Assembly: GCA_016234935.1 (NCBI GenBank)
Contig: JACRNL010000010.1
Location: 276,589-340,588, forward strand
Length of the DNA: 64,000 nt
Reading direction: 5' to 3'
Source: Deltaproteobacteria bacterium
GTDB lineage: Bacteria; Desulfobacterota; GWC2-55-46
Under the pieces are notes generated by a model. The model was not told where the DNA came from. It did no database searches and saw only the letters and a list, made by a program, of their open reading frames with translations. This document shows positions 718 through 62,582 of this stretch, piece by piece. The position numbers and the translations under genes were made by a program. The first letter of the stretch is position 1; the number at the start of each line of letters is the position of its first letter.

Positions 718-1132
718 AAAACGGCAGAAGTTGGTAGGCTAAATTAACGCATGACGGGCTTTTTTGACGGGAAGACCCTTAATGAAAAAGGCATTGACAA
801 GCTGCCGGAAAAATATTAAAGTATACCCTCACAATTGAATATAGAACCTTCCGTGACTGACGGAATCAAGGTGGCAACCACCGGGGATCGGAAGGGTCGT
901 TTTAATGATAAACTGCATGACGGCGCCTGTAAAAGGCGCTGTGCGCGAAGAATAACATACGTGAAAATGCGCGTTCTATCAGCCCCCGCATGCCTGCCCT
1001 CGCACGTTTTAAGCGTGGGCATGAAGCGGGGGGTCAGCCGACCGTCTGGGCAATCGCATGATACCATTCATCGTGTGATTTCGCTCAGGCGGTTTTTTAT
1101 TTTCAACCTTTAAAAGCAGGAGTTCAAGCAAG

Positions 1133-1651: not shown

Positions 1652-2772
1652 AGATTGCGGTATTAAAAGAGACGGCGCCTTACGAGAGAAGGGTTGCCGC
1701 CGTGCCGGAGACCATCGCAAAATTAGTCAAGTCAGGGGCGGAGGTGATAGTGGAATCCGGCGCCGGAAAAGAGTCTTTTATTGAAGACCAGGACTTCGAG
1801 GCCGTCGGTGCGCGGATTGAGCCCGGCACAAAGGCCGCCCTTGCCGGCGCTGACATCGTAATAAAAGTTAACAAACCCACGGACGCCGAGATCGACTCCA
1901 TGAAAAGCGGCGCCGTATTCATGGGCTTTATGAGCGCGTTTACAAGCCCCGATACGGTCAAAAGGCTGGCTGAGAAGAATATCACCTCGCTGGCGATGGA
2001 AATGGTCCCCCGCATAACAAGGGCGCAGAGGATGGACGCCCTTTCCACCATGAGCACCATTGCCGGATACAAGGCCGTCCTTATCGCGGCAACGGCCTGC
2101 GGAAGGTTCATGCCTATGCTCACCACCGCGGTAGGCACAGTCCCTCCGGCAAAGGCCATCGTCATCGGAGTGGGCGTTGCCGGACTCCAGGCCATCGCTA
2201 CGGCAAGGCGAATCGGCGCGGTCGTAACGGCCTTTGACACAAGGCCCGCCGCCGGAGAGCAGGCAAAAAGCCTCGGCGCGGACTTCGTGGCAATGGACGT
2301 TGACCACAGCCATGCCGAAGACGCCGGCGGATACGCCAGGGAGCAGAGCGCGGACTTCTACAAGCAGGAGCAGGAGCTTATCCGCAAATACTCGAAGGAC
2401 GCGGATATCATTATCACCACGGCCCTCATCCCTGGAAAGCCGGCGCCGGTGCTCATCACGGAGGAGATGGTCAAGGAGATGAAACCCGGCTCCGTCATAG
2501 TTGACCTGGCGGTGGAACAGGGCGGGAACTGCCCCATTTCAGAGGCCGGAAAGCAGGTTATCAAACACAGGGTCATACTCGTCGGGCAATTGAATCTTCC
2601 GAGCACGCTCCCTGTGCACGCGAGCCTTCTTTACGCGAAAAACATCCTCGCGTTCCTCAACCTCATACTGCCGGACGGAAAGACGCTTAAAGTAGACCCC
2701 GCCGACGATATAATAAAGGGTTCGATGATAACGCACGACGGGCAGATAACGCATCCTGCCCTGAAGAAATAA
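1648..2772 (+). CDS. pntAA: NAD(P) transhydrogenase subunit alpha part 1 (dI, AlaDH/PNT fold)
   Basis: 374 aa. N-terminus MKIAVLKETAPYERRVAAVPE plus a GVGVAGLQAIATARRIGA Rossmann motif. GGAGG RBS. Confidence 0.9.
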   Translation: MKIAVLKETAPYERRVAAVPETIAKLVKSGAEVIVESGAGKESFIEDQDFEAVGARIEPGTKAALAGADIVIKVNKPTDAEIDSMKSGAVFMGFMSAFTSPDTVKRLAEKNITSLAMEMVPRITRAQRMDALSTMSTIAGYKAVLIAATACGRFMPMLTTAVGTVPPAKAIVIGVGVAGLQAIATARRIGAVVTAFDTRPAAGEQAKSLGADFVAMDVDHSHAEDAGGYAREQSADFYKQEQELIRKYSKDADIIITTALIPGKPAPVLITEEMVKEMKPGSVIVDLAVEQGGNCPISEAGKQVIKHRVILVGQLNLPSTLPVHASLLYAKNILAFLNLILPDGKTLKVDPADDIIKGSMITHDGQITHPALKK

Positions 2773-2854
2773 TGCCTTTTTTAATAAAGCTGAAAGCGGG
2801 CTTGCCGCCCCGAAAGATTTTTTAAAGCAGCAGTAAAAAAGAAGGAGGCTACAT

Positions 2855-3148
2855 ATGGTTGGATATTCAACGTTAATGCCGGAGCTGTACGTCTTCATAC
2901 TTGCCGCATTCGTAGGCTATATGGTCATTACGCGGGTCCCTCCGCTCCTGCACACGCCGCTCATGTCGGCCACCAACGCGATTTCGGCCATATCGGTCGT
3001 AGGCGCGATATTGGTCGCCGGCAGCGCCAACAGCCTGGTAACAAAGATACTCGGCACCATTGCCGTGGCCGCGGCCATGTCAAACGTGGTTGGCGGATTC
3101 ATCCTCACCGACCGCATGCTTAAGATGTTTAAGAAGGAGAAACGTTAA
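2855..3148 (+). CDS. pntAB: NAD(P) transhydrogenase subunit alpha part 2 (membrane dII helices)
   Basis: 97-aa hydrophobic protein between pntAA and pntB. GGAGG RBS. Its stop overlaps the pntB ATG. Confidence 0.85.
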   Translation: MVGYSTLMPELYVFILAAFVGYMVITRVPPLLHTPLMSATNAISAISVVGAILVAGSANSLVTKILGTIAVAAAMSNVVGGFILTDRMLKMFKKEKR

Positions 3149-11299: not shown

Positions 11300-11334
11300 A
11301 GGCATCCTTTCTGTTTTTCCATCAGGCCGCTCAA

Positions 11335-11480
11335 CGCAGCAAATGGGGCGCTTGAGGCAGCCTCTTAAGGGCAGGCTGCTCAAAAAGCCCCAGATGCAAG
11401 GAGTCGAGGAGTGAGGCGTGCTTTTTGGGCACGCCGCAGTGACGAATAACGAAGACAACGCCGCAGATGGGGCGCTTGAG
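11335..11480 (+). mobile_element. MITE-like ~125-bp TIR element, copy A, with an extra solo right-end fragment at its left
   Basis: AGGCTGCTCAAAAAGCCCC…GGCGTGCtttttggGCACGCC…GATGGGGCGCTTGAGGCAGCCT. It abuts the TAG stop of the RHH gene. Confidence 0.6.
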
Positions 11481-11488
11481 GCAGCCTG

Positions 11489-11698
11489 CTACGAAATCCT
11501 GCCCATCCTCGTCAGAAAGTCCCCCACGGCCACCCTGACCATCGCGCTTAGCGTCCATCTCTGTCCAAGCTTTTCCCTGTATTCAACAACAAGCGCCTTG
11601 AGGCTTTCGATCTGATCCTCTTCGAGCATCACGGTGAGCCTTTTCAACTCCTCGTGAGCGTCCTGCTTATGGGTTTTTTTCAGGGTCTTTTTAGCCAT
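11489..11698 (-). CDS. ribbon-helix-helix protein, ParD/CopG-like
   Basis: 69 aa with an RHH signature (…RLTVMLEEDQIESLKALVVEYREKLGQ…). Overlaps the LOG stop by 8 nt. Its stop codon is contiguous with MITE copy A. Confidence 0.55.
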   Translation of the reverse strand: MAKKTLKKTHKQDAHEELKRLTVMLEEDQIESLKALVVEYREKLGQRWTLSAMVRVAVGDFLTRMGRIS

Positions 11699-15513: not shown

Positions 15514-16536
15514 CTAAACCTCCGCTTTACGGGCCTTTGCCTCAACTTCCCTCTGAGAGGGTGCAACCCTGCCCGAATTTTTTTTGATGACTATGCCCTC
15601 CAGAAGCCCGGCGTCGCTGACTTTGATTTCCTCAAAACCGAACTCATCCATCGCGGCAATGGCGATAAGCGCGCCGGAGATGATCAGGTCTTCCCTGCCC
15701 TTTTCAAGGTTCAGCACCGTCTGCCTCTCCCTCAGCGTAAGGCCTACAAGATACCGGTAGAGGCGCTCCACCCTCGGCCTTGAAAGCGTGGCGTTGTTGA
15801 TGCGAGTCCTGTCGTAGACCTCAAGGCCCTGGTCAAGGGCCGCAAGGGTCGTAACCGTCCCCGCTGTCCCGACAAATACCGCGCCGCTTGCCATGCTGTA
15901 ATCCGCAGGATTAACGCCTGCGTTTGCCATGCCGGCCTTAAGCTCCCCCATCACAGCGCCTATCTCGCCACGCAGGGCTTTAATCTCCGCATCCTGCGGC
16001 GGGTCGCTCTTCAGGTGCGTCTCCGTAAGGTGCACCACTCCCATCTCCATTGACCACACGCCTCTTATGCCGCCGTCATCAGTGGCGATAAACTCCGTCG
16101 AGCCGCCGCCGATGTCCATGACAAGCCGCCTGCCCCGCGGGGTGTCACACCCTCTCGGGTCATTCAGGACCGACAGCACGCCGAGAAGGGACAGCCGCGC
16201 CTCTTCCTCGCCGGAGATGACCGACACGCTTATGCCGGTCTTCTTTTCGATCTCGCTTAAAAACCACTTTTTGTTCCCGGCCCGCCTGACCACGCTTGTC
16301 GCGGCGGCCTCGACCGACTCGACTCCCACCTCGTCGATCACCCTTTTAAACTCCTCAAGCGCGGCGAAGGTCCTCTGGGCGGACATGGGGTCTATTCCGG
16401 CGCTCTCGGTGTAGCTGCCCCCGAGGCGCGTTATCGCGCGCCTGTAAACAAGGGGGGACAGACGTCCGGATGAGTCAGCCTCGGCTATTAAAAGCCTTAA
16501 TGTATTCGTGCCGATGTCAATGGCCGCGTATTTCAT
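15514..16536 (-). CDS. ppx: Ppx/GppA-family phosphatase (exopolyphosphatase-like)
   Basis: N-terminus [19 protein letters not shown] with ASKHA-fold motifs. Confidence 0.8.
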
Positions 16537-16554: not shown

Positions 16555-16650
16555 CCGGCACCACTTTGCGCTGCCAACGCCTGCCCTCGCATGTATGAAG
16601 CGGGGGTTTGTATTACGCATGAACTCTTAGCGACGGAAAGTGGTGCTGGG
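16555..16650 (+). repeat. hairpin-repeat family 2, copy 3 (CGGCACCACTTTGCG…CGGAAAGTGGTGCTGG), with a REP unit in its loop
   Basis: Inverted 13-15-nt arms. Lies ~19 nt upstream of the ppx start. Confidence 0.55.
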
Positions 16651-17055
16651 CGTTCCTGTTTGTTTTTTCTTCCTCTCGACCGCGATGGAGAGCTTTGCCG
16701 CCCCCGCCAGCTTTGCCGTATCAAGGACTTCCACAACAAGGCCGTGCCTGACGTTTGTATCGGCCTTTATAACGACCGTCTTTTCAGGGCTGTTTGCAAG
16801 GGCGGATTTAATAGCGTCATAAAGCGCGGCCCTCTGAGAGGGTTCAACCCTTGAGCTTGCCTTGCCGTTTATGCTTATATTGCCGCCCTCGCCTATCTCG
16901 ATGACCACACCCTTGCCAGGCTCCGCCCCGGCGCTGACGGCCTTCGGGAGCTTCACCTTGAAGGATTCGATCATGATAAGCGGCGTGGTGACCATGAAGA
17001 TAACGAGCAGGACGAGCATCACGTCCGTAAGGGGCGTGATGTTGATCTCGCTCAT
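16627..17055 (-). CDS. ExbD/TolR biopolymer transport protein
   Basis: MSEINITPLTDVMLVLLVIFMVTTP… is a typical ExbD/TolR N-terminus. The ORF track's first 12 codons lie in the repeat. Confidence 0.8.
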   Translation of the reverse strand: MSEINITPLTDVMLVLLVIFMVTTPLIMIESFKVKLPKAVSAGAEPGKGVVIEIGEGGNISINGKASSRVEPSQRAALYDAIKSALANSPEKTVVIKADTNVRHGLVVEVLDTAKLAGAAKLSIAVERKKKQTGTPSTTFRR

Positions 17056-17728: not shown

Positions 17729-17840
17729 TTTTTATTTTCCGGCGCGCCCGGTGCGCATTGAGGATTTCAACTTATCCCCTCTTTTCTAAACATGTCCCCG
17801 CATGTCTTAAGCGGGGAGAGGGGTTAGGGGAGATTATATT

Positions 17841-18386: not shown

Positions 18387-19850
18387 TCAAATGTTTCCAA
18401 AAATCTCAATCCCGCCTTCTCGCCCGCCTTTCCGCCCGCCTGCCATTTCCAGCATCAATATCTTTTTTGTCAGCCGCGTGACCTTGAACCTGTCCGACTG
18501 CTTCAGCCCCGCCAGCCATATGATCTCGGTTCCGGCGTAAACAACCGGCACAAGCGGCCTGAGGCGGGCGGGTATCTTTTCTTCTATCAGTATCTCCTTG
18601 AGCTTTTTGTGTCCGTCCATGCCGAAAGGGATCATCCTGTCGCCTGGTTTGATTGTCCGCGCCCGCACCGGCCCCGGCAGCAAGGCATAATCAAAATAAG
18701 CCGCGCCCCGGCCGCCCGTAAAGCCCTTTGCCGGAGGTTTTTTCAAGACCGTCGCCGATATAGACAACCCCTTGAAGGGGTTCAGCCCCCTGAGGGGGTT
18801 CAATCCCGCATCCTTTATCAGCGTCTTGCCGGGCGTTTTAACGGCAACGTCGAAGGATGCAGGTTTACCGGCCTTTTCTCTGGAGATTATCAGGCTGTTG
18901 TAAACACGCCTGAGGATAAGCCCGCCAGGAAGCGCGCAGGAGGCCGAGGGGCTCGCGGCTTTTACGATGGCAACGTATGCGTCGGCATGCGCGCTGCATA
19001 TCTGCGCGTCCTTTTCCAGAGACCAGACGGCGTCTAAAAAAACCCTTTTTGAAATGGCCGGATGGAGGGCCGAGAGTTTGAGCCTGTCCATGGAGACAAA
19101 ACCTCTTTTGCGCAGGGTGGCGGCGTCTGAAAAAGCGGCGGCGGCCCGGGCGCGCATGAACTCGCCGTCCTCTCTCAATATTCCGGCGGTGCGCGCAAGC
19201 GTCTCGATTATGTTGGGGTTGTAGCGTTTCTTTATAAACGGCAGGAGCCTGAGCCTCACGTCATTCCTTAGATAATCCATGCCGAGGTTGGACGAGTCCG
19301 TTACGTATTTAATGCCTTGTTCCGCGGCGAAACGTTCTATCTCCGCCCTTTGGCAGGCTATCAGCGGGCGTATGAAACGGCCCCGCACGGGAGCCATTCC
19401 GGCAAGGCCGCGAAGCCCGCTGCCCTTTAAAAACCTCATTAGCACAGTCTCGGCCTGGTCGTCCGCGTTGTGTCCAAGGGCTATCCTGGCCGCCCCGAAC
19501 CTCTCGGCCGCCGCACTCAGAAACTCAAGGCGCCTGTCCCTTGCCAAGGCCTGCAAAGACTCTCCGCGCTTCTTAAGCTCTCCGCGCTTAAGCGTGACGC
19601 CGGCGAATTCAAGCCCGCCGGCGGCGGCGAGCTTTTTCACAAAAAGAAAATCCCTTTTCGACTCAGCCCCGCGCAGGTTGTGGTTTACGTGGGCGACCAT
19701 AAGGGTAAGGCCAAGCCGGTCTTTAAGAGCCGAGAGCGCGCGGAGCAGCACAACGGAGTCAACGCCGCCGGACACGGCGACGAGGACGGACTCCCCCTTT
19801 TTAAGCATACCGAATTTACTAACGGTCTTTTTTACCTTTTCAATCAGCAT
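18387..19850 (-). CDS. tilS: tRNA(Ile)-lysidine synthetase
   Basis: PP-loop VAVSGGVDSVVLL. Start at MLIEK (the ORF track extends 17 codons further). The gene contains an in-frame REP-derived insert (see 18770-18812). Confidence 0.8.
   Translation of the reverse strand: MLIEKVKKTVSKFGMLKKGESVLVAVSGGVDSVVLLRALSALKDRLGLTLMVAHVNHNLRGAESKRDFLFVKKLAAAGGLEFAGVTLKRGELKKRGESLQALARDRRLEFLSAAAERFGAARIALGHNADDQAETVLMRFLKGSGLRGLAGMAPVRGRFIRPLIACQRAEIERFAAEQGIKYVTDSSNLGMDYLRNDVRLRLLPFIKKRYNPNIIETLARTAGILREDGEFMRARAAAAFSDAATLRKRGFVSMDRLKLSALHPAISKRVFLDAVWSLEKDAQICSAHADAYVAIVKAASPSASCALPGGLILRRVYNSLIISREKAGKPASFDVAVKTPGKTLIKDAGLNPLRGLNPFKGLSISATVLKKPPAKGFTGGRGAAYFDYALLPGPVRARTIKPGDRMIPFGMDGHKKLKEILIEEKIPARLRPLVPVVYAGTEIIWLAGLKQSDRFKVTRLTKKILMLEMAGGRKGGREGGIEIFGNI
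18770..18812. repeat. two tandem REP-like GC palindromic units inserted in-frame in tilS
   Basis: CAACCCCTTGAAGGGGTTCAGCCCCCTGAGGGGGTTCAATCCC encodes GLNPLRGLNPFKGL on the minus strand. Confidence 0.6.
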
Positions 19851-19990
19851 CGCAGCCCCGAAGGTGAAGGAGATTTGAGAGCGCGATATAATCACGCGCA
19901 TACTTAAAAACGTTTGAAAGACAGCTATAATTTACCGCATGCCGGACAATAAGGCAAATGCAGTTTGAAGCGTAAATATGATGCCCGCAC

Positions 19991-20112
19991 AGGCTGCTCA
20001 AAAAGCCACAGATACAAGGCGTCGAGAAGCAAGGAATGAGGCGTACGTTGTATGTACGCCGCAGTGACGAGCTACGAAGACAACGCGGTAGATGGGGCTT
20101 TTTCAGCAGCCT
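19991..20112 (+). mobile_element. MITE-like TIR element, copy B
   Basis: AGGCTGCTCAAAAAGCCAC…GGCGTACgttgtatGTACGCC…GATGGGGCTTTTTCAGCAGCCTG. Confidence 0.6.
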
Positions 20113-20185
20113 GTTAAAATTATTTGACTCTGAGGGGGATTCTGCCGCATTATATCTGAATAACGCAGAGGAACGGAGAGCGCAA

Positions 20186-20800
20186 ATGACAGACGCTTTG
20201 ATGACTGAACAAGACCTGAAGGACTACCTCACTGAAATCCTCATCTTCATGAATTCCTCCGCGGACTCTTTCGACAACAGGTGCGTGGGCGAGGCAAGAC
20301 GCCTTGCGGCGTGCATACGCATACTTGCCGAGGACACCGCCCAGTCGCGCTCGCTCCTCGGACAGCTCGGGCTTACAAACCTTTTTTTCTATGACGACGC
20401 GCCGGATTACAACCCTGAGCTGGGCCTTCCGTTCAGCGGCCTTGCCGTTGTGACGCTTGGAGGCAAGACACACAAGTACGCGGCCCGGCTTGACAACAAC
20501 GTCAGGTCAAAAACCCGGAAGGTCTCTTTTGACCAATGGTGGCATAAGCCCGTCATCGTGGACGAAAAGAGAAAGATGAGCCTTACGCGCCGAGACGTCA
20601 CGCTGGCCGTGGCAAGCGCGAATATCGGCGAGATAAACCCAAAGCTCACGGGGGCATTTGAAGAACTCCTGCGCAAGGAGTCGCGCGGCTGGATCACCGA
20701 TTCCACCGTTGTCCCGCTTGACATGATCGAGATCGAATACGCCAGCCTGAGGCAGATAGCCTTCGAGCTTTTGAACTCGCTCGAAGACCAGCTGAAGTAA
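20186..20800 (+). CDS. hypothetical protein (204 aa), no recognisable domain
   Basis: Start at MTDALMTEQ with a GGAGAG RBS. The ORF track begins 50 codons earlier inside MITE copy B. Flanked by MITE copies B and C. Confidence 0.5.
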   Translation: MTDALMTEQDLKDYLTEILIFMNSSADSFDNRCVGEARRLAACIRILAEDTAQSRSLLGQLGLTNLFFYDDAPDYNPELGLPFSGLAVVTLGGKTHKYAARLDNNVRSKTRKVSFDQWWHKPVIVDEKRKMSLTRRDVTLAVASANIGEINPKLTGAFEELLRKESRGWITDSTVVPLDMIEIEYASLRQIAFELLNSLEDQLK

Positions 20801-20956
20801 CGCATTTGAACGCCATTACTCCCCTGTGAAGGGGCTGAGCCCCCTCACAGGGGGTCTACCCCTGATAAACCTTTCCATAAACATGGCAACGCATCTTTCC
20901 TTACGGCATGAGGCGCATCTTCACGCCGTAAGGGAACAGTTTCATGCCATCTCAAT

Positions 20957-21215: not shown

Positions 21216-21297
21216 GTAGTGCGAGGCTTCAGCCTCGCTGTTTTTTTTGCGGTTCACTTGCCTGATTACAACAGGCGAGGCTGAAGCCTCGCACTAC
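21216..21297. repeat. inverted pair of GTAGTGCGAGGCTTCAGCCTCGC hairpin units (repeat family 3); left unit followed by T8
   Basis: ACGTAGTGCGAGGCTTCAGCCTCGCTGTTTTTTTT … GCGAGGCTGAAGCCTCGCACTACGT. Related units at ~53300-53395 and ~56696-56725. Confidence 0.5.
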
Positions 21298-21310
21298 GTA
21301 AAACAGAACG

Positions 21311-21457
21311 CGGCAGATGACGCGCTTGAGGCACAGGCTGCTCAAAAAGCCCCAGCTACTATGCGACGAGGAGCGAAGAACGAGGCGTAGTGTGTCCTAC
21401 GCCGCAGTGATGAGCGACGAAGGCAACGACGTAGATGGGGCTTTTTCAGCAGCCTGC
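21311..21457 (+). mobile_element. MITE-like TIR element, copy C, preceded by a partial right-end fragment
   Basis: …CAGGCTGCTCAAAAAGCCCCAG…GGCGTAGtgtgtcCTACGCC…GATGGGGCTTTTTCAGCAGCCTGCTCA. The napC-like TGA stop lies in the last 3 nt. Confidence 0.6.
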
Positions 21458-21961
21458 TCAGTGGAATATCCCCTGATGACAATCAACACAGGTAGCCTTG
21501 CCCTCGGCAAGGAGCGTCGCGTGCGCGGCCTTGCCGAATACTGAAGACGGCTTCGGGTCTTTGTGGCAGTCCCTGCACGGGGAGCTGTCCCAGCCCTTTA
21601 TCTGCTCCCTCGCCTTTCTTGCGAATTCGTCCTTATATTTGTCAAACTTCTCTTTCGTGCTTAAATCATGCGTGAAGCTGCTTACCACGTCCTTCATGCC
21701 GGTGACGACATGCACCTTTACCTTGCCGATGAAATCCGGCGGAAAGTGGCAATCGCGGCACTCAGGGTTTATCCCGCGCGAGCCCCAGTGCGCCGATTTC
21801 TTAAGCCCCTCGTAGGGATAGGTCATGGAGTGGCACGACATGCAAAATCCGGTCGAACTGAAAAACCTCTCGCCGCATATGAACGCGTAATTCAATGCCA
21901 GAGCGGCCACGGCGGTGATAACGACGAGCCTCCAGTTCTCAAGCAAGATCCTCTTTAGCAT
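21458..21961 (-). CDS. NapC/NirT/CymA-family membrane tetrahaem cytochrome c (quinol dehydrogenase)
   Basis: Four CxxCH motifs (CMSCH, CRDCH, CRDCH, CVDCH) and an N-terminal TM helix. Confidence 0.85.
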   Translation of the reverse strand: MLKRILLENWRLVVITAVAALALNYAFICGERFFSSTGFCMSCHSMTYPYEGLKKSAHWGSRGINPECRDCHFPPDFIGKVKVHVVTGMKDVVSSFTHDLSTKEKFDKYKDEFARKAREQIKGWDSSPCRDCHKDPKPSSVFGKAAHATLLAEGKATCVDCHQGIFH

Positions 21962-26091: not shown

Positions 26092-26254
26092 CGACAAAGA
26101 AATACCCCACAACGTTTTTATTGTCAACAGCAAAAGCTCCGCGGCCACAGCCGCCTTAAGGGCCGTTTGTCCCCGTGTGTCTAAAGCGGGGACTTGAATA
26201 TTGTCCGGAGGTGAATTTCAGGGTGTCCGCCGCTAAAAAAAACGCAAAGATGAT

Positions 26255-29480: not shown

Positions 29481-29577
29481 GCCTGCCCTTTGAAAGGGTT
29501 CAACCCTCCCCAGCGCCACTTTCCGGCGCCGACATTTTTATTAGATACATATGCTGATAACGGAAAGTGGCGCTGGG
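29481..29577 (+). repeat. REP unit plus hairpin-repeat family 2 copy 1 (CCAGCGCCACTTTCCG-[AT-rich 33 nt]-CGGAAAGTGGCGCTGG)
   Basis: Lies directly upstream of the gnd start. Near-identical copy at 30813-30908. Confidence 0.6.
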
Positions 29578-29712
29578 CTGCCCATCCCATGAAGAGGATT
29601 TAAAAACAACGTAAAATTCCGCAAAGCTCAATTGATTAATAGCTTAAAGATAGCAGAGAAGGCGAGGAAAGGCAACTGCGCAAGGACGTTTTCCCGCCCT
29701 CGGCGCATGGGA

Positions 29713-30735
29713 TTAAAATTGCAGATTAGGCCTGAGGATGATCTGGAAGTTGTCGCGATTTTCCCTATCCTCAAGAACGCCCGTGTATTTTAACGCACCC
29801 TCCCAGATAAAGCCCACGGCCATGGAAAAGGCAATCTTTTTTTCATTGTAAGGCCACTTCTTGTCGACCGTGAAGTAGTGCCGCACTGGTTTTAACGTCC
29901 TGTTATCCATGTCAAAGATATATTCAAAGCCGGCGTTCTTAAAAAAGGTGTCGGGCGAACCCTCATAGTCCACAAAGCTCCTTCTGAGCGCTATGTAAAT
30001 GACGTCCTTTATGTCACGGTTCGAATGGAGCTTTTCCCCCACGCGAAAGCTCCAGCTAAGCGTATGGGTGGGGAACTTCCTGTCCCCCTTAATCTTCCAC
30101 TCCAGCTCTACCGAACTGTCCTTGATGAGCCTGTTGTCCTTTATGTGCTGGTCGCCTATGCTGACGAGATACCCCATGTAGCCGAAGTTGCCGCTCCTGT
30201 GCTTTTCGCCGGGGCTCGTGAAACTGACGACGTTGCCCATGAAAAACGAAAGGGCATAGGGCTCTTCAAAGCCTGCGGTCACGGCCTTTATCAGGTTGAG
30301 GTTGTCTGAGACCTTCGCGCCCCTGTATACGTCATTCGCGTTGCTTCTGGCGGCAACGCCCGCGACAGGCATGGGGAATACCGCCGCTTCAACGACAAGA
30401 TATCTGGGGATGTAGGAGCTTAAAAACAGGTCTCTGTATATCTGAAACTCAGGCTTTGTGCCTGCGTCTGGAATCGGCTGGTCGGTGAGATTTACGATAA
30501 TCGAGGCGTTAGTGTAATACGGGTCAAGCTCGTATTCAAAACTATAACCCTTTTCTTCCTTGCCGGCCGTCACGGCCTTTTCCTGCCCTCGCGTGTTTAA
30601 AGCGGGGGTCTGAGGCATTGCCTCATCTTTTGAGACTAAAACAGCCTCCTGGGCGTAGGCGCACGGCTGTCCAACGCACACGAGGACAAAAAGCGAAACC
30701 GCACAAAGAATCCTGCAATGGAAAGAATCCCTCAT
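29713..30735 (-). CDS. hypothetical outer-membrane protein (signal peptide, C-terminal …LRPNLQF beta-barrel signature)
   Basis: Start at MRDSFHCRILCAVSLFVLVCVGQPCAYA. Terminal aromatic residue typical of OMPs. Confidence 0.45.
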   Translation of the reverse strand: MRDSFHCRILCAVSLFVLVCVGQPCAYAQEAVLVSKDEAMPQTPALNTRGQEKAVTAGKEEKGYSFEYELDPYYTNASIIVNLTDQPIPDAGTKPEFQIYRDLFLSSYIPRYLVVEAAVFPMPVAGVAARSNANDVYRGAKVSDNLNLIKAVTAGFEEPYALSFFMGNVVSFTSPGEKHRSGNFGYMGYLVSIGDQHIKDNRLIKDSSVELEWKIKGDRKFPTHTLSWSFRVGEKLHSNRDIKDVIYIALRRSFVDYEGSPDTFFKNAGFEYIFDMDNRTLKPVRHYFTVDKKWPYNEKKIAFSMAVGFIWEGALKYTGVLEDRENRDNFQIILRPNLQF

Positions 30736-30812
30736 GATGTAACGAATTCTCTCCGCCAGACCTGTGTGATAAATCATACCGCCTAAAGGGCCAGCCATAA
30801 CTGCCTCTCAAG

Positions 30813-31015
30813 CCTGCCCTTTGAAAGGGTTCAGCCCTCCCAAGCGCCACTTTCCGGCGCCAACATTTTTATTAGATACATATGCTGATAACGGAAAGTG
30901 GCGCCGGGCTGCCCTCGCATGTCCCCCGCTTAAAACCCCCGCTTTAGACCTGCGAGGGCAGGCGTGCGGGGGTTGAACCCCTTCAAGGGGCAGGCTGAAG
31001 CGGGGGTTTAAAACC
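30813..31015 (+). repeat. cluster of REP-like units (CCTGCCCTCGCATG / CCCCCGCTTAAAA / GGGTTGAACCCCTTCAAGGGG) plus family-2 hairpin copy 2
   Basis: Direct reading shows several inverted GC palindromes without the regular spacing of a CRISPR array. Confidence 0.6.
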
Positions 31016-31227: not shown

Positions 31228-31707
31228 TTATAGAGGTGTCGGCGCTGGAGCCGGTGTCGGCGCCGGCGCCGGCGCCGGAGTTGGAGCTGGAGCCGGAACA
31301 GGCGCAGGCGCTGGTTTTTCACCCATTACCGTTATCTCAAGCTGGCATTCCTTGCATGATTCGACCTCTACCTCAAGCTCGTTATCCGCCTTGAGCGTCA
31401 CGTTGTAGCTCAGCGTGTCGACCTTCTTGCTGAAGTCCTTTTGCCGCGCCACCTTCACGTCGTTCAACTCTATTGTCGCGCTCGATACCCTGAAAGACTT
31501 GCCTGATTCGCCGCCGTTCTTCACGACTATGACCCCGCTGCCTGCTACCGGGGCCGTGAAGTGGAAGGTCGTCTTCTTGTCATGCTTGGAATGTTCGCGC
31601 TTTACAACGTAGACAGGCCCGTAGATCGTGCCCATCTCGGCAAGCGCCGCGCCCGCCGACGCGAGGGTTAAAGCAACTACCGATGCCAGCAAGAATAATC
31701 TTTTCAT
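31228..31707 (-). CDS. secreted protein ending in a (Pro-Ala)n/Thr/Val repeat tail
   Basis: Signal peptide MKRLFLLASVVALTLASAGAALA with an AAGGAGG RBS. C-terminus PAPAPVPAPAPTPAPAPAPTPAPAPTPL, encoded by a GCNCCN microsatellite at ~31235-31320. Confidence 0.55.
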   Translation of the reverse strand: MKRLFLLASVVALTLASAGAALAEMGTIYGPVYVVKREHSKHDKKTTFHFTAPVAGSGVIVVKNGGESGKSFRVSSATIELNDVKVARQKDFSKKVDTLSYNVTLKADNELEVEVESCKECQLEITVMGEKPAPAPVPAPAPTPAPAPAPTPAPAPTPL

Positions 31708-32115
31708 ACGAAATTCCTCCTTACTAAGGTTTTTTATTCTCAAGCTGTGTATATATCGCGGATGACGCCACATGCATATTATAGCTGATTTATAGCATGA
31801 GGCCGGATTTCACACAGTGACTAAAGCTACCAAACGAATTTAATTTTCCTGCAAGGGGATTTTCACGCCTGCCCTCGCGTGTCCCCCGATAGAAACATTC
31901 GAGGGCAAGCTAAAGCGGGGGGTGGAATAAATCCCGCGAAATTGCCGCCCGGACATTGCCGGGCCGGTCATGAGACGCGAAAAACCTGAACTTTAACAGA
32001 CCTTGACAAACCTTGACCTGCTGATATTCTTTGAATAGTCAGCATCCCGCGCCATACAGCCCGGCACACCCCCTTGCCCCCACGACCAAATACACCGGAC
32101 AGACAAACGGTAAAT

Positions 32116-32862
32116 ATGGAAAAGAAACGTCACATCTATTCTTCCCCGGCAAGGCTTTTTCTTATCATCGCAGTCTCTGTTTTTCTTATAGAGGCCATGA
32201 TAATGATCATACTGCCGCACCTGCCGGTTTTGTCCGCAACCACGACGGTTCTGCTCGACACGTTGGCGCTGGTCTTGCTGCTCACGCCTGTTCTCTACTT
32301 CTTCTTTTTCCGTCCGCTCATTCAGCATATCAACGAACGCACGGCAAATGAAGAAAGACTCCGGATCATCAACGACAACGCCGCCGACGCGATCGTTTGC
32401 GCGAATGACGATGATAAAATCTACGCATGGAACAAAAAGGCCCATGAGATATTCGGCTATACCGCCGAAGAGGCAAAAGGAAAGCCGATTCACAGCCTCA
32501 TTGTGCCGGAAAGGCACCGTGAAAAGGCGGCTAAGGGCCTTAAGCTTTTTTTTAAGACCGGAACCGGCCCGGTAATCGGCAAGACGCTGGAATTAGCCGC
32601 TCTCCGCAAAGGCGGCACAGAATTCCCTGTCGAGCTTTCGGTGGCGGCCATGAACATCCGCGGCCATTGGCACGCGACCGCCATCATCAGGGACATTACC
32701 GCGCGCAAGAAGATGGAAGACGAACTCAAGTCTCGGCTTGAGCAATTTGAGCGGCTTAATAAGCTCATGGTAGGCAGGGAACTGCGCATGGAAGAGCTTA
32801 AAAAAGAGATACAGTCGCTTGAAAATAGCCTTATGAAGCTCCGGGGGACTGATGGGCGTTGA
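32116..32862 (+). CDS. membrane-anchored PAS-domain protein with C-terminal coiled coil
   Basis: TM segment LFLIIAVSVFLIEAMIMIIL, then a PAS fold (…DAIVCANDDDKIYAWNKKAHEIFGYTAEEAKGKPI…). Overlaps the next gene by 11 nt. Confidence 0.6.
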   Translation: MEKKRHIYSSPARLFLIIAVSVFLIEAMIMIILPHLPVLSATTTVLLDTLALVLLLTPVLYFFFFRPLIQHINERTANEERLRIINDNAADAIVCANDDDKIYAWNKKAHEIFGYTAEEAKGKPIHSLIVPERHREKAAKGLKLFFKTGTGPVIGKTLELAALRKGGTEFPVELSVAAMNIRGHWHATAIIRDITARKKMEDELKSRLEQFERLNKLMVGRELRMEELKKEIQSLENSLMKLRGTDGR

Positions 32863-35050
32863 ATCTGAAGATCTCATTAAAAAAATAGAAGCGTTTAAAA
32901 CAGAGCTTGCAAAAAAGCAAGCCGAGCTTGAGAAGGCATGGGCGCAGGAAAAGGAACTCAAAGATACCTCGCGCGCGATGCTCAACCTCCTTGACGACCT
33001 GAACAAATCCTCCGCTAACATGGAGGCGGCGAAAAAGGACTGGGAGACGACCTTTGACGCGATGCTTGACCCGGTATTCATCCACGACAGCCGGTTCAGG
33101 GTAGTCCGGGCCAACAGGGCCTATCAGGAGGCGGCGGGGCTTGCATTTCACGACATTATAGGCATGCCCTATTACGAAGTATTTCCGAAAACTCAGAGCG
33201 GCCCTTGCAAGGGCTGCTTAAAGGCCATCGAACCCGGAATCGAGGAAAAGGAAGAGATTTACATCCCTCAGACGGGCAAGACATTCAAGATGCTGTTTTA
33301 TGCCATGAAAGACGCTGCCGGCAAGCAACTATGCGGGCTGCACGTCATGGAGAACATAACGGACGTAAAGAAGGCCGAAGATGCGATGCGGCGGGAATTG
33401 GAGATTATAAGGCATCTGCTTATGATATCCAACGCCGCCGCCCGTACCACGGATATAGACAGGCTTATGGAGCAGGTGGTCTCCTGCCTGAACACAATCA
33501 TGTCGAGCGATATCGCATTGTCCTATCTCTGGGACGGGGAAGGCGGCGCATTCCTGCCAAGCCATGCAACAGGACTGTCCCACGAACAGACGTCGCTGTT
33601 TTTGACGGAGCATATCGGCGGCAATGACGCCGTTGTTAAAAAGGCATTCAATGGACACGCGGCGATAATCGGAAAAGAAACCCTGACGGCCGAGGGGCCG
33701 GGGACAGACGCGCTCAAAAGGCTTTTTTCGCGGGAAACACGGCTTGAATCGCTGGCCGTGATACCTCTTTACGGCAGGCTCGGCCCCCTCGGCCTTTTAA
33801 TATGCGCGTATACGGGACTCAATCCGAAAGGCGCCGAGGCGTTGGAACGGATGCCGGAAGAACTGATGAACGGCATCGGCTCTCAGGTGTCAACCGCGCT
33901 CGACGAGGCGCGGGTATACAGGGAGTCAACCAACAAATCAATGGAGCTCTCCCACAAGATAGAAACCATAAAGATCATGCACGAAATAGACAAACATGTG
34001 CTTTCCACCCTGGAACCGCAGGAGATACTCGACACGGCCGTGCTGATGATCTCAAAGATAATACCGTGCGACAGGGTAACGGTGGTTCTCGTTGACAGGG
34101 CCAGGGGCGGCTTTTCACTAATCGCCGGATTCGGCACTAAAAACAGGTTCGCGCCGTTTGAAGATACAAACGCATCCGAGATATTGAAGACCGGACGGCT
34201 GCAATACGCGGCGGACCTGCGCGAAATCGGGGATATCAAGCCTCTTGAAAAAAGCCTCCTTGACGAAGGCTTCATATCGCATATCAGGATGCCCCTTACC
34301 GTAAAGGGCGAGATATCGGGGATTTTGACCGTGGGGTCAAGGCACGCCTCGGCGTATACGCCTGAAGACCTTTCAACCATGGAAAAGCTCGCGTCCCAGA
34401 TAAGCGTGGCGCTTGAGAACGCGCGGCTCGTTAAAGACCTCGAAGAGCTTTTCATCGGGATAGTGAGGACGCTGTCAAAGGTCATAGACACGAAAAGCCC
34501 CTGGACGCAGGGCCATTCGGAGCGGGTCACCGAATACGCGCTTGAAATAGGCCGAGCCATGGGCATGGGCAAAACGCAGCTCAAGCGGTTAGAGCTTGCC
34601 GGCCTGCTTCACGACATCGGCAAGATAGGGACTTACGAAGCCATACTCGACAAGCCCGGCAGGCTGAGCGACGAAGAGCTTGAAATAATGAAGCGGCATC
34701 CGTCCGCAGGCGCTGAAATACTCCAGCCCATAAAGCAGCTTGCGGACGTAGTCTCCGTAATAAAATGCCACCATGAATTTTACGACGGAAGCGGATATCC
34801 GGACGGGATCAAAGGCGAGAGCATCCCGTTGATGGCGCGTATGCTCACCGTGGCCGACGCGGTCGACGCGATGAGCGCGGACAGGCCTTACAGAAAAGGC
34901 AAGCCCGCAAGCGCCATCATGCAGGAGCTTAAAAGATGCTCCGGCACGCAATTCGACCCGGCCGTGGCCAAGACATTCCTCTCCATCATTGAGGCCAAAT
35001 GGCAAGGGGCTGCGCCCCCTCAGGGGGCCGAACCCCCTCAGGGGGCGTGA
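32852..35050 (+). CDS. PAS-GAF-GAF-HD-GYP protein (c-di-GMP phosphodiesterase family)
   Basis: HD motif LLHDIGKI and HHEFYDGSGYP (HD-GYP). The C-terminal tail QGAAPPQGAEPPQGA is encoded by REP palindromes. Confidence 0.85.
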   Translation: MGVESEDLIKKIEAFKTELAKKQAELEKAWAQEKELKDTSRAMLNLLDDLNKSSANMEAAKKDWETTFDAMLDPVFIHDSRFRVVRANRAYQEAAGLAFHDIIGMPYYEVFPKTQSGPCKGCLKAIEPGIEEKEEIYIPQTGKTFKMLFYAMKDAAGKQLCGLHVMENITDVKKAEDAMRRELEIIRHLLMISNAAARTTDIDRLMEQVVSCLNTIMSSDIALSYLWDGEGGAFLPSHATGLSHEQTSLFLTEHIGGNDAVVKKAFNGHAAIIGKETLTAEGPGTDALKRLFSRETRLESLAVIPLYGRLGPLGLLICAYTGLNPKGAEALERMPEELMNGIGSQVSTALDEARVYRESTNKSMELSHKIETIKIMHEIDKHVLSTLEPQEILDTAVLMISKIIPCDRVTVVLVDRARGGFSLIAGFGTKNRFAPFEDTNASEILKTGRLQYAADLREIGDIKPLEKSLLDEGFISHIRMPLTVKGEISGILTVGSRHASAYTPEDLSTMEKLASQISVALENARLVKDLEELFIGIVRTLSKVIDTKSPWTQGHSERVTEYALEIGRAMGMGKTQLKRLELAGLLHDIGKIGTYEAILDKPGRLSDEELEIMKRHPSAGAEILQPIKQLADVVSVIKCHHEFYDGSGYPDGIKGESIPLMARMLTVADAVDAMSADRPYRKGKPASAIMQELKRCSGTQFDPAVAKTFLSIIEAKWQGAAPPQGAEPPQGA
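35005..35050. repeat. REP-like palindromes forming the 3' end of the HD-GYP gene
   Basis: GGGGCTGCGCCCCCTCAGGGGGCCGAACCCCCTCAGGGGGCGTGA. Confidence 0.55.
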
Positions 35051-37336: not shown

Positions 37337-37413
37337 GGCGCACTTTGTTGTGCGCCGTTCGTTCCGAGTGACGACGACAACGAAGCAGATGGGCGTTTTT
37401 CAGCAGCCTGCTG
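37300..37413 (+). mobile_element. MITE-like element, copy D (left TIR missing)
   Basis: …CCAGATGCGAGGCGTCGAGGAAGCGACGAATGAGGCGCACtttgttgGTGCGCC…GATGGGCGTTTTTCAGCAGCCTG. Confidence 0.55.
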
Positions 37414-41116: not shown

Positions 41117-41172
41117 GAATGCCTCGCTTTGTTAGATGAATTGGGGCTGAGCCCCTTCAACATGTCTGTTTT

Positions 41173-43314: not shown

Positions 43315-43460
43315 CAAATCCCCTCTAATGTCCGATAGTGTAGTGCGGCGCCCCCGCTTCAGACCTGCGAGGGCAGGCTTTAGCGCCGCCGAACGAGACG
43401 CTGGAGCGTCCAAGGCTGCTTTCCCATGCCGGAGCGTGGGAAAGATAAAAGAAAGGATGA

Positions 43461-45269: not shown

Positions 45270-45338
45270 CCAGCACCACTTTCCATTGCCAATGCCTGTA
45301 TTATGCAAAAACTCTCGGTGATGGAAAGTGGTGCCTGG
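45270..45338 (+). repeat. hairpin-repeat family 2, copy 4 (CCAGCACCACTTTCCAT…ATGGAAAGTGGTGCCTGG)
   Basis: Arms carry compensatory changes relative to copies 1-3. Lies ~56 nt upstream of the lipoprotein gene start. Confidence 0.55.
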
Positions 45339-46287: not shown

Positions 46288-46336
46288 CACCCCCACCCTG
46301 CCCTCCCCCGTGGAGGGGGATGAGAAATGGAAGGGG
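46288..46336. repeat. G-rich 50-nt leader motif CACCCTGCCCTCCCCCGTGGAGGGGGATGAGAAATGGAAGGGGTCAT, second copy at 56520-56570
   Basis: Two near-identical copies, each in the 5' leader of a minus-strand gene (the FGE-like gene and yebC). Confidence 0.45.
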
Positions 46337-46456
46337 TCATTTGCCTGTTCCGGACAACTTTTAAACCCGCACCCCCCGCATTCAACGAACCTTAAAAAAA
46401 GCGGGCCGCGCAAGCCGGCAAGCCCCGGTGAGCCGGACTTGGCAATTATACCTTGA

Positions 46457-52284: not shown

Positions 52285-52298
52285 TAGCCGCCTTCTTA

Positions 52299-52999: not shown

Positions 53000-53019
53000 A
53001 AGGACGCGGCCCGCCCCCG

Positions 53020-53095
53020 CTTCAGCCTGCCCTCGCGTGTTTTTAGCGGGGGACACGCGAGGGTTGAACCCTTTCAAAGGGCAGGCAAAGACGAC
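53020..53095. repeat. REP-like units (GCCTGCCCTCGCGTG…AGCGGGGGACACGCGAGGGTTGAACCCTTTCAAAGGGCAGGC)
   Basis: Same palindrome family as at 975-1040, 17775-17830, 30905-31015, 31860-31925 and 43335-43385. Confidence 0.55.
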
Positions 53096-60267: not shown

Positions 60268-60356
60268 CCCTGTCCTGTCGCTGCGTTTGCCGCCTGCCTC
60301 GCGAGAAGCGCGGGGGCTGGAGCCCCTTCAAGGGGCTCGGCCCCTTCAAGCGGATG

Positions 60357-62582
60357 TTATATCGCTGCCGCCTTTACAGGCAGTTCGATTATGAAGCGCG
60401 TGCCCCTCGGCACGTTGTCCTTTACCCTTATGTACCCGTTATGGTCGGCTATGATGTTGCTGACGATGGCCAGCCCCAGTCCCGTGCCGGTCTTCTTTGT
60501 GGAGAAGTAGGGCTCGAAAAGCTTTGACTTTATCTCCGCCGGGATGCCGGTGCCGTTGTCCGCCACCTCCAGACGCGCCGCCTGCATGCCCTCGTCAAAA
60601 TGCGTCTCGACGCGGATGGTCCCGTCATCTTCAACGGCCGAGACCGCGTTGTCGATAAGGTTTATCAAAACCCGTTTTATCTGGTCCCTGTCTATGTCCA
60701 GCGCCGGAAGCCTCTGGTCGACGAGCGCCTCGAAGGTGATCCGCCTCGCGCCGGCCTTGTAGAGGGCCACGGTCTCCCTTACTATCTCGTTCAGGTCGTT
60801 AGAGCTTGGGTTGGACGCCGGCATGCGCGCGAAACTGGAAAACTCGTTGACGAGCGTCTTTAATTCGTCAACCTGCTTGATGATGGTAGTGGTGCACTCG
60901 TCAAAGACGTTTCCGTCGCCCTCGAACCTGTCAAGGTACTTTTTCCGTATCCTCTGCGCCGAAAGTTTTATCGGCGTCAGGGGGTTTTTAATCTCATGGG
61001 CTATCCTCCTGGCCACCTCTTTCCATGCAAACATCCTCTGCGTTTTAAGAAGGTGCGTCAGGTCGTCAAGCACGGCGACCATGCCGATATAGTTGCCGCT
61101 CTCGTCGCGCAGGGCGTTGAGGTTGACCAGGACCGTCATGTGGTTGCCCCTCACGTCGAGACGCATCTGCTTTTCCATTGACTCCACGCCCAGCTCGTTC
61201 ATCTCCCGTATCATATCACGGAATATCTCCCTGTCCTCCTCGCGCAGCACGTCCCTGTAGTTCTTTCCGAACGCGGAATTCTCCTCCGTGCCCAGCAGTT
61301 CGGCGCCGACCCTGTTTATCGAGGTGATGCGTCCGGTCTTGTCTATTGAAACGACGCCGGCGGGGACGTTGCTGAGGACTATCTCTATGTAGCGCCTTCT
61401 TCTTTCAAGCTCGGCGTTAGTGCCGCGCAGATCAAGATTAGCCTCCTCAAGCTGGCCCTTGCCGGCCTTTAAATCCTCGGTCATCCTGTTAAAGGACTTG
61501 ACCAGAAGGCCGATCTCGTCGTCAGACTCTATGTTTATCTTGTATTCGAGGTTCCCGCTCGCCACGGCGTGAGTGCCCTCGGCGAGCTGATGTATGGGGA
61601 TGGTGATCTCCCGCGCCATGTAGCGGCCTATCCATATCGAGAAAAAGACTATAAGGAGAGTGATGACCAGAAGTATCGTGAAGTAGCTGGCCTTCACCGG
61701 GAAGTTAAGGAGTTTGAGCTGCCTGTAACCCTCGAAGGCGGCGGATATCTCCTTCATCTTGTCAAGAAGGCTTCTGGGCACATAGTAGCTCACGACCACG
61801 ACGGCATTGACCTGTTTCGGGTCGGCCTGCGACAGGACAGGGTAGATGCCCCTGACAACGTCGCTCTTGTCAAAGGTCTCCATGACGCTCGACGCCTCTC
61901 CCTGCATCGCCTTTGCCACGTGCTCCATGCCCACGAGCGGGACCATGTTCTGAGTTACGGCATTGGATATCGCGTAACCGGCCATGCCGCCGTCCGGGGT
62001 GTAGACCTCTATCGCGGAAAAGTCATTCTCCTTCATCTTTGTTTCAATGATGCGGCTGAGCGCCTGGGCGTCCGCCGGCTCAAACGAGGCGTCAACGCTT
62101 CCGGCGAGCGTCCTTGAGCCGGAGACAACCCTGTCCGTCAGGTCCCTGTAATAGTTCTGTCCAAGCTCAAGGGACTCCTGAAGGGAATCTTCGACTTTTA
62201 TGGCGAACCAGCCGTCTATGCTTTTATTTATAAAGCCTATGACAACGAAGAAAAGGACGAACGTGGGGACTATCGTGAGGGCGACAAAGGCCGTAATGAG
62301 CTTGGTCATGAGCCTGGAGCCCATTACCTTCCTCTTTCTTTCAAAGAAAAGCTTGACCGTGTTCCTGATGACAAGGAATATGAGCAGCACTATCAGGATG
62401 ATGTTGATATTGATGAGGCCGAGGAACAGGATGTTCGTCGGCAGCGGCACGTTTTCGCTTACGAGCGAAATGTGAGATTCTACGTATGTTAAAAAAAGGA
62501 CAGCCGCGATGACAAGGAGTATTATGTAAAACTCCCTGCGCCTTCTTTTGTGTTCCGCCTCTGTTCTCTGGTTATTTTCCAT
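60357..62582 (-). CDS. ntrY: sensor histidine kinase NtrY-like (TM-HAMP-PAS-HisKA-HATPase)
   Basis: H-box RRIAHEIKNPLTPI, N/G1/G2 boxes, N-terminal multi-TM region. Confidence 0.85.
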   Translation of the reverse strand: MENNQRTEAEHKRRRREFYIILLVIAAVLFLTYVESHISLVSENVPLPTNILFLGLININIILIVLLIFLVIRNTVKLFFERKRKVMGSRLMTKLITAFVALTIVPTFVLFFVVIGFINKSIDGWFAIKVEDSLQESLELGQNYYRDLTDRVVSGSRTLAGSVDASFEPADAQALSRIIETKMKENDFSAIEVYTPDGGMAGYAISNAVTQNMVPLVGMEHVAKAMQGEASSVMETFDKSDVVRGIYPVLSQADPKQVNAVVVVSYYVPRSLLDKMKEISAAFEGYRQLKLLNFPVKASYFTILLVITLLIVFFSIWIGRYMAREITIPIHQLAEGTHAVASGNLEYKINIESDDEIGLLVKSFNRMTEDLKAGKGQLEEANLDLRGTNAELERRRRYIEIVLSNVPAGVVSIDKTGRITSINRVGAELLGTEENSAFGKNYRDVLREEDREIFRDMIREMNELGVESMEKQMRLDVRGNHMTVLVNLNALRDESGNYIGMVAVLDDLTHLLKTQRMFAWKEVARRIAHEIKNPLTPIKLSAQRIRKKYLDRFEGDGNVFDECTTTIIKQVDELKTLVNEFSSFARMPASNPSSNDLNEIVRETVALYKAGARRITFEALVDQRLPALDIDRDQIKRVLINLIDNAVSAVEDDGTIRVETHFDEGMQAARLEVADNGTGIPAEIKSKLFEPYFSTKKTGTGLGLAIVSNIIADHNGYIRVKDNVPRGTRFIIELPVKAAAI

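Follow-up and report, generated by a model that had tools for sequence, protein, structure and literature searches.

Rickettsia palindromic elements (RPEs) of the RPE-1 type are about 100-150 bp long and are known only from Rickettsia. Cyanobacterial genomes reportedly contain still shorter units, the small dispersed repeats (SDRs) that Elhai and colleagues are said to have described in 2008, which measure 21-27 nt, have no transposase of their own, form hairpins in some cases and occur nested or in mixed tandem arrays. Intragenic copies are on record for repetitive extragenic palindromic (REP) sequences of the GTAG and CGTC superfamilies, many of them paired or grouped, with Opitutus terrae and, for RPEs, Rickettsia conorii as notable cases; a minority of REPs is in frame within genes, some of which serve tRNA modification and DNA repair (Di Nocera et al. 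2013, PMC3733652). As cited there and in PMC3184786, the RPEs of Ogata et al. 2000 are palindromic repeats that lie in frame in many housekeeping genes, and repeats fused in frame to open reading frames (ORFs) are covered in the review of Delihas 2011. Here we describe a palindromic unit of only 18 nt in a 64-kb stretch of DNA (the window) within a 354,468-bp contig of a metagenome-assembled "Deltaproteobacteria bacterium". A first-pass annotation of the window had noted REP-like palindromes in intergenic DNA and in two genes, and had regarded REPs as normally strictly extragenic, which the intragenic REPs and RPEs already on record (PMC3733652) show to be an overstatement.

The repeats of the window, coding copies included, most probably represent a family of REP-like DNA palindromes that is specific to the lineage and has very small units. 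The window has a G+C content of about 55% and carries housekeeping genes (guaA, guaB, ppx, exbBD, tilS, polA, zwf, ruvABC, purL, metK) together with genes for signalling proteins. The basic module is 18 nt long and consists of a G-run, a YTGAA spacer and a 13-nt perfect palindrome, CCCYY-TCA-RRGGG (CCCYYTCARRGGG). Four stem subtypes occur (CCCCT/AGGGG, CCCCC/GGGGG, CCCTC/GAGGG and CCCTT/AAGGG), with perfect symmetry kept in all of them; the upstream flank has the consensus GGGG-YTGAA and the downstream flank has none. The sequence GAACCCCYTCARGGGG has four exact matches in the window, against 0.00 expected, and with up to three mismatches allowed there are 17 matches against 2.1 expected, a number reached in 0 of 100 shuffles. 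Eleven sites of the 18-nt unit were identified in the 64 kb, seven intergenic and four coding. Short, dispersed, present in many copies, mostly extragenic and partly arranged in mosaics, these palindromes have the properties of REPs and bacterial interspersed mosaic elements (BIMEs). The same elements are present in independent NCBI, Logan, ENA and JGI assemblies.

Modules occur singly or in head-to-tail ladders with a period of 18 nt. A distance of 18 nt separates adjacent cores in 9 of the 12 cases that lie within verified genes and in 21 of 24 cases elsewhere (window and related contigs, the latter given below by L numbers). Because the spacing also holds outside genes, the six-codon period is intrinsic to the element and not the result of a coding filter. 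The unit contains TGA in one frame per strand, which leaves the other four frames open, and all four are used (GLNPLR/GLNPFK, xEPxQG, PxEGVQ and PLKGFx). For example, what tilS reads as AAC-CCC-CTC-AGG is shifted to GAA-CCC-CCT-CAG in the frame of an HD-GYP gene. Identical DNA is thus read in four frames, which shows that the peptide is not under selection and that this is a DNA repeat, not a peptide motif. The coding copies of the window are as follows.

18768..18803, minus strand: two tandem 18-nt units in frame in tilS, adding LNPLRGLNPFKG, as seen by homologue alignment, Pfam and AlphaFold.
35006..35050, plus strand: two units and a stop codon forming the C-terminal tail of a PAS-GAF-HD-GYP protein, in a frame different from that of the tilS copy.
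16830..16851, minus strand: single 18-nt unit in frame inside exbD, adding RVEPSQ, with an AGGG run on both sides.
15549..15570, minus strand: one unit, GGGTTGCACCCTCTCAGAGGG, in the tail with which the Ppx/GppA phosphatase ends at its C-terminus; the tail is lineage-specific and the unit is also found in L018.

The first-pass annotation had reported two insertions in coding sequence (CDS), and both were borne out (tilS and the HD-GYP gene), while those in exbD (16830-16851) and in the ppx tail (15549-15570) had escaped it. In tilS, the plus strand of 18768-18803 reads CCCCTTGAAGGGGTTCAGCCCCCTGAGGGGGTTCAA and the coding strand TTGAACCCCCTCAGGGGG-CTGAACCCCTTCAAGGGG, which encodes LNPLRG-LNPFKG and in its translated context reads G-LNPLRGLNPFKG-L. 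The window TilS is identical to MBI5888573.1. The 12-residue segment is missing from 17 of 17 aligned homologues, including the closest two (75% and 70% identity), and a codon-level DNA alignment with the tilS genes of L003 and L001 leaves a clean 36-nt gap. It is positioned between the PP-loop/substrate-binding region and the TilS_C domain, with Pfam matches on both sides, and the alignment with Geobacillus TilS (PDB 3a2k) is also gapped there. The AlphaFold model has a mean predicted local distance difference test (pLDDT) score of 83.5, with the insert (residues 367-377) as the only internal stretch below 50, modelled as a loop between strands 358-362 and 379-386. An earlier suggestion that such segments may be tolerated linkers is supported by this modelled loop. 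A second lineage-specific indel lies near the C-terminus of tilS (18411-18440), where 24 extra nt are absent from L001 and L003. It is built from 12-nt copies in tandem (AGGCGGGCGRRA, coding GGRKGGREGG), its pLDDT is below 50, and it has the look of simple slippage with no relation to the hairpin units.

The HD-GYP gene (32852..35050) ends in GGGGCTGCGCCCCCTCAGGGGGCCGAACCCCCTCAGGGGGCGTGA, which encodes QGAAPPQGAEPPQGA and the stop codon, and its protein is identical to MBI5888586.1. Its tail carries two units in the window and one in L004 (92% nt identity), with different repeats downstream in L004, and more distant homologues stop shortly past ...FLK, where their tails are unrelated and run to about 1 to 20 residues. 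The L004 gene also contains a separate in-frame 18-nt palindrome, AAGGGCGCGGCGCCCTTC, at the position matching window 33717. With the 36-nt gap in tilS and the one-unit difference in the HD-GYP tail, comparison of orthologues upheld the proposal that dispersed repeats have entered these genes in frame as lineage-specific inserts.

At the exbD site, the filled form is AGGG-TTGAACCCTCTCAG-AGGG. In the protein alignment there are no units in P0242, P0244 and 13 other ExbD sequences, one in the window and two in P0243. At the DNA level the empty site, AGGG, is found in L017 (the closest, 93.9% nt identity), L019, L020 and L071, and two units are found in L018 (85.7%). As read from these alignments, such a distribution would mean either repeated hits at one site or precise loss. 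In the ppx gene, nearly all of the 150 listed representative Ppx homologues cease to align near residue 318 of 340, and the L018 tail has an additional 18-nt in-frame hairpin.

The distribution of the family was surveyed in genome and metagenome collections. A scan of 185,579 GTDB species-representative genomes with the query GGGNYYGAACCCCYTCARGGGG, a collection that does not include the source genome, gave just 12 singleton matches in unrelated taxa, about the chance level, so the family is narrowly distributed. In a scan of JGI metagenomes 70 contigs matched, 57 of them from the single sample Ga0315281, whose population has 86-90% nt identity to the window at the exbBD and ruvBAC loci. There are 103 repeat sites on the Ga0315281 contigs. 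At least 18 of these lie well inside Pfam-supported ORFs, a count that leaves out ORFs without Pfam support (L047, L049 2-1135, L052 and L032), and four more lie within the last ten codons. Nine sites are within domain envelopes (PyrK-like NAD-binding, glucokinase, GT9 heptosyltransferase, HemD, enoyl-CoA hydratase, PTS-IIB, CheY-like receiver, methyltransferase and RmlA-like nucleotidyltransferase), and further sites are in linkers or tails of GlnD, SelB, DnaX, RuvC, an HdrD-like protein and PSP1. Against solved structures the gap is exactly 18 residues in RmlA (6n0u) and 6 residues in CheY (4h60); for the L046 glucokinase the PDB alignment begins past the insert. The orthologous PTS-IIB genes of L069 and L045 differ by inserts of 54 nt and 18 nt. 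The peptide GLNPLKG in a radical-SAM/DUF3362 protein of L025 was rejected as an insertion, as its contig belongs to another sample and the Pfam profile crosses the peptide ungapped. The C-terminal tail of RuvC varies: in L044 (1363-1527) it holds two-plus-one 18-nt units, ending in ERDQPPEGDQPPSRGRHDI and a stop codon, while in the window (55076-55250) it holds an inverted-repeat element. The position of the ruvC stop codon beside the ruvA start is conserved in both.

A second module is a hairpin of about 27 nt, CCCCCGC-TTTAGACA-GCGGGGG, with a variant that begins with CCTGCCCTCGC and also ends in GCGGGGG. With up to two mismatches, CCTGCCCTCGCRTGT has nine matches in the window against 0.39 expected. 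The 27-nt modules often adjoin 18-nt units in BIME-like mosaics (30905-31015 and 53006-53090). Every interval in which REP-like palindromes had previously been noted does contain an 18-nt or a 27-nt motif, though the motifs had been pooled as relatives of one unit and represent at least two distinct modules. Most intergenic copies are located between same-direction or convergent genes, near 3' ends. The remaining sites in the window are listed here.

979..1032, plus strand: cluster of 27-nt-type modules in a divergent intergenic region.
16568..16609, plus strand: 27-nt-type module CCTGCCCTCGCATGTATGAAGCGGGGG in the exbD-ppx gap, inside a longer inverted-repeat element.
17790..17816, minus strand: 27-nt module nested in the loop of an older hairpin, in the gap between a hexapeptide-transferase gene and exbB.
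20821..20868, no strand: two variant units of 19 nt each in the gap where two genes converge, forming a single long hairpin (RNA fold z = -4.3).
26169..26193, no strand: single hairpin GTCCCCGTGTGTCTAAAGCGGGGAC, intergenic.
29481..29508, minus strand: unit variant GAGGGTTGAACCCTTTCAAAGGGCAGGC, about 20 nt upstream of the start of a 6PGDH-like gene and within a 103-nt repeat.
30582..30616, minus strand: 27-nt-type module within the gene of a hypothetical secreted protein (29713..30798, minus strand), directly after the predicted signal peptide (PQTPALNTRGQ).
30812..30839, minus strand: second copy of the unit variant GAGGGTTGAACCCTTTCAAAGGGCAGGC, 14 nt upstream of the next gene start.
30905..31015, plus strand: intergenic mosaic cluster of 27-nt hairpin modules and one 18-nt unit (30966-30995), with fold z of -2.3 and -2.9 on the two strands.
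31868..31921, no strand: pair of 27-nt-type modules in a divergent intergenic region.
41140..41160, plus strand: single partial unit GGGGCTGAGCCCCTTCAAC, intergenic.
43351..43389, minus strand: 27-nt-type module upstream of a CHASE2-cyclase gene, within an over-long ORF call; the CHASE2 domain runs from residue 56.
53006..53090, plus strand: mosaic cluster in the ruvB-queH gap, with a 27-nt module and an 18-nt unit (53057-53086); fold z = -3.2.
60311..60357, plus strand: two units in the gap that separates the stop codon of a histidine kinase gene from the start of the next gene, for a sigma-54 response regulator; fold z = -3.3.

The module at 30582-30616 may be another in-frame insertion and is kept as a candidate. 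The positions 29481, 43351 and 53006, which fall inside called ORFs, were rejected as coding sites, as the Pfam domain starts place them upstream of the true start codon. The Pfam domain of the 6PGDH-like gene begins at residue 46 of the long ORF, and the QueH domain beside the cluster at 53006..53090 begins at residue 63. The modules also insert into one another and into other repeats. In the gap between the hexapeptide-transferase gene and exbB, copies of the 27-nt hairpin number none in L019, one in the window and two in L018, where the second lies in the loop of the first, and in L019 the 36-nt dimer of tilS recurs inside another repeat, at its CCCC run. Repeat clusters fold as RNA better than shuffled sequence (z from -2.3 to -4.3). 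No family was matched in an Rfam search at gathering thresholds, and no tRNA genes hinting at an integration site were found.

A RAYT (REP-associated tyrosine transposase) gene was sought with E. coli RAYT, IS200 and IS608 queries, and the sole match used, that of the E. coli RAYT on L085, was confirmed by Pfam. This gene (2318..2791) encodes a Y1_Tnp protein of 157 residues that contains an HUH motif (PF01797, score 33 bits, cut-off 23), and is flanked on both sides by GTAG-tagged REP arrays, GTAGGGCRGGGCTTCAGCCCTGC and GTAGGGCAAGGCTTTAGCCTTGC (2050-2940). By their sequence, the gene and its arrays together are a classical REPtron. GTAG REPs of this type (GTAGTGCGAGGCTTCAGCCTCGC), a family separate from the 18-nt units, are also present in the window, with an inverted doublet at 21216-21297 and single copies at 56704-56726 and 53351-53373. 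An element of about 128 nt with inverted GTAG-containing ends (CAGGCTGCTCAAAAAGCCCCAGCTAC ... GTAGATGGGGCTTTTTCAGCAGCCTG), REPIN- or MITE-like (miniature inverted-repeat transposable element), is present in five copies (11332-11495, 19987-20117, 21306-21461, 37325-37413 and 52293-52424), one of which overlaps the called start of ORF 20036..20800. In L019, L071 and L085, 18-nt units are inserted in the GGGG run of this element.

Close relatives differ by gain or loss of modules at the DNA level, stepwise by 18 nt. New copies adjoin an existing G-run (GG to GGGG), after which a G-run stands on both sides, and the coding copies are located in loops, linkers and tails. A new site would most likely be seeded in one of two ways, through an enzyme that is encoded elsewhere and mobilizes the unit in trans, or through template switching that starts from microhomology at a G-run and needs no transposase. 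Arrays would then grow and shrink by slipped-strand mispairing, with precise loss possible between the flanking G-runs, and the coding copies would be tolerated passengers, not functional modules. Such copies may persist because the period is six codons, four of the six frames are free of stops, and hexapeptides rich in Gly, Pro and Asn suit surface loops. More tentatively, and as a possibility well short of even odds, the 18-nt module could be a minimal self-propagating palindrome that has no dedicated transposase and spreads by G-run-primed template switching followed by slippage; the six-codon period and the frames free of stops would then allow it to enter coding sequence unusually often (about one site in five).

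Several points weigh against the interpretation of these units as a propagating REP-like family. No mobilizing enzyme is tied to the units: no transposase or Y1_Tnp gene was found among the approximately 60 window ORFs scanned, and the 18-nt units do not flank the L085 gene, the only RAYT-like gene found. Single units within CDS fold no better than shuffles (z about 0), so that hairpin formation by a single copy is putative. With G-runs on both flanks, a target duplication and the end of the element are inseparable, which obscures the insertion chemistry. The insert peptides are predicted translations, and the census covers the 64-kb window together with some 200 kb of metagenome contigs picked for carrying the motif.

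The first-pass annotation had proposed that the coding insertions could be traces of RAYT activity; on that reading the units are classical REPs mobilized by such an enzyme. The related population does have a Y1_Tnp gene whose product contains an HUH motif, GTAG REP doublets are also present in the window, and the hairpin tip of the REPs beside the L085 gene, GGGCTTCAGCCC, resembles GGGGTTCAGCCCC of the 18-nt unit. However, neither GTAG nor CGTC, the tetranucleotides that mark one end of the stem-loop in the REP superfamilies described by Di Nocera et al. 2013 (PMC3733652), is present in the units, the L085 RAYT is flanked by GTAGGGCRGGGCTTCAGCCCTGC arrays and not by 18-nt units, and no RAYT lies within the 64-kb window. 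A RAYT link is not supported for the 18-nt units, although the likeness of the hairpin tips leaves room for one, and we consider it unlikely that a RAYT is their source. Selection on the nucleic acid itself, for example as terminators, mRNA stabilizers or protein-binding sites with the coding copies as by-products, is quite unlikely in our assessment. It would be consistent with the location of most intergenic copies between same-direction or convergent genes near 3' ends, a placement typical of REPs thought to act as RNA (PMC3733652), with the folding of clusters above shuffles (z -2.3 to -4.3) and with compensatory changes in the stems. Presence and absence nevertheless vary at the same sites among relatives that are 86-94% identical, the copies have no uniform orientation with respect to transcription, the hairpins are not followed by a T-run and Rfam gave no match; palindrome symmetry would be equally expected if the propagation mechanism needs it.

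Copy number that shifts in 18-nt steps, and the clearly local 12-nt slippage event at the C-terminus of tilS, could point to variable number tandem repeats (VNTRs) that expanded by slippage independently in each gene, with no dispersed family. This is very improbable, as the YTGAA spacer, the TCA loop and the stems recur at unrelated loci, in other frames and in non-coding DNA, units at different loci are more alike than random GC-rich palindromes, and slippage cannot make the first copy at an empty site such as that in exbD. That the hexapeptide repeats are selected protein modules serving as flexible linkers, their DNA palindromy being incidental, is scarcely credible: the inserts do occupy loops, linkers and tails, and their Gly, Pro and Asn content is high, but identical DNA is translated in four frames into unrelated peptides, the majority of copies are non-coding, and close relatives function without the inserts.

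Several other repeats were observed in the window. An element of 60-95 nt with inverted ends (GCACCACTTTC...GAAAGTGGTGC) is found at 16555-16649, 29509-29577, 30840-30908, 45273-45334 and 55150-55217. By its overlap with the exbD stop, the first of these copies provides ExbD with a tail, STTFRR followed by a stop codon, that is new relative to L017 and L018, and the last lies inside the long C-terminal tail of RuvC. A 103-nt repeat with 96% identity (29481-29583 and 30812-30914) is directly upstream of two neighboring same-strand genes, for the 6PGDH-like and the hypothetical secreted protein, and may be a shared promoter, a 5' leader or a mobile element. The pntB gene (3148-5172, 674 codons) has Pfam PNTB matches in two stretches and an internal duplication of 300 nt with 79% identity (4039-4338 and 4630-4929). 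A 56-nt repeat with 84% identity and the hairpin CCCCCGTGGAGGGGG (46290-46345 and 56520-56575) lies just upstream of two unrelated genes, FGE-sulfatase-like and YebC-like. ORF 31228..31773 (minus strand), which has no Pfam match and a low-complexity product, contains GC-rich repeats in tandem at 31235-31314, with periods of 12 and 18 nt (GGTGTCGGCGCYGGAGCCGG...).

With these elements, a free-living, uncultured deltaproteobacterial (Thermodesulfobacteriota-like) lineage joins the few cases, such as Rickettsia and Opitutus, with palindromic repeats routinely in working genes. Gene callers and homology tools can misread such inserts as low-complexity loops, over-long N-termini or new C-terminal tails, as in the longest-ORF calls of the CHASE2-cyclase and QueH-like genes and in the tails of ExbD and RuvC. 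Differences of zero, one or two units among relatives that are 86-94% identical provide useful strain markers, and the natural insertion sites reveal loops of TilS, ExbD, RmlA, CheY and PTS-IIB that tolerate 6-18 extra residues. If the units do spread independently of a transposase, this would bear on the origin of REP-like repeats, and self-propagation would mean that nature has scanned the housekeeping enzymes of an uncultured lineage by peptide insertion.

Among described systems, REPs and BIMEs are, like these units, multi-copy GC-rich palindromes of small size that sit for the most part between same-direction or convergent genes, and they have in common with them mosaics, direct or inverted pairs, strain variability and an in-frame intragenic minority. 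They differ in that the unit here is only 18 nt with a 13-nt palindrome, has no GTAG or CGTC tag, keeps a strict 18-nt ladder, has not been found flanking the RAYT gene of the lineage, and has a high coding share (4 of 11 sites for the window; for the relative, at least 18 of 103). As in RPEs, in-frame palindromic inserts add surface peptides without destroying the protein, and they occur in functional genes (tilS, exbD and the HD-GYP tail in the window; RmlA-like, CheY-like and PTS-IIB genes in the relative). Unlike RPEs of roughly 100-150 bp, the unit measures 18 nt, forms arrays that vary in copy number and belongs to a free-living uncultured deltaproteobacterium. What is reported of SDRs is similar in length (under 30 nt), non-coding capacity, mutual insertion and mixed arrays, and here the 27-nt hairpin is nested zero, one or two deep; phylum and sequence are different, so that this is a likeness of features and not of lineage membership. 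Insertions of 18, 36 or 54 nt with no separate terminal inverted repeats do not resemble MITEs, which are 70-300 bp long with terminal inverted repeats and a target-site duplication. VNTR-like steps of 18 nt in copy number are seen; the unit is also dispersed to unrelated loci and appears at sites that are empty in relatives, for which slippage by itself would not account.

The comparison with REPINs and REPtrons (Bertels & Rainey 2011, PMC3116915, where the SDR paper, Genome Res 18:1484, is cited) holds for the lineage, which has GTAG REP doublets and a REP-flanked RAYT-like gene (L085). The GTAG REPs are a separate family and the 18-nt units are not the REPs of this gene, though they do enter G-runs of elements that bear GTAG. 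Direct ladders (tilS, HD-GYP and exbD in L018) and inverted neighbors both occur at 18-nt spacing, and with a unit that is nearly its own reverse complement, direct and inverted neighbors differ in the center bases alone. The 18-nt units are therefore best classed as a new lineage-specific family of a kind that is known from Rickettsia and other bacteria; what sets it apart is a unit of notably small size and the high proportion of coding sites.

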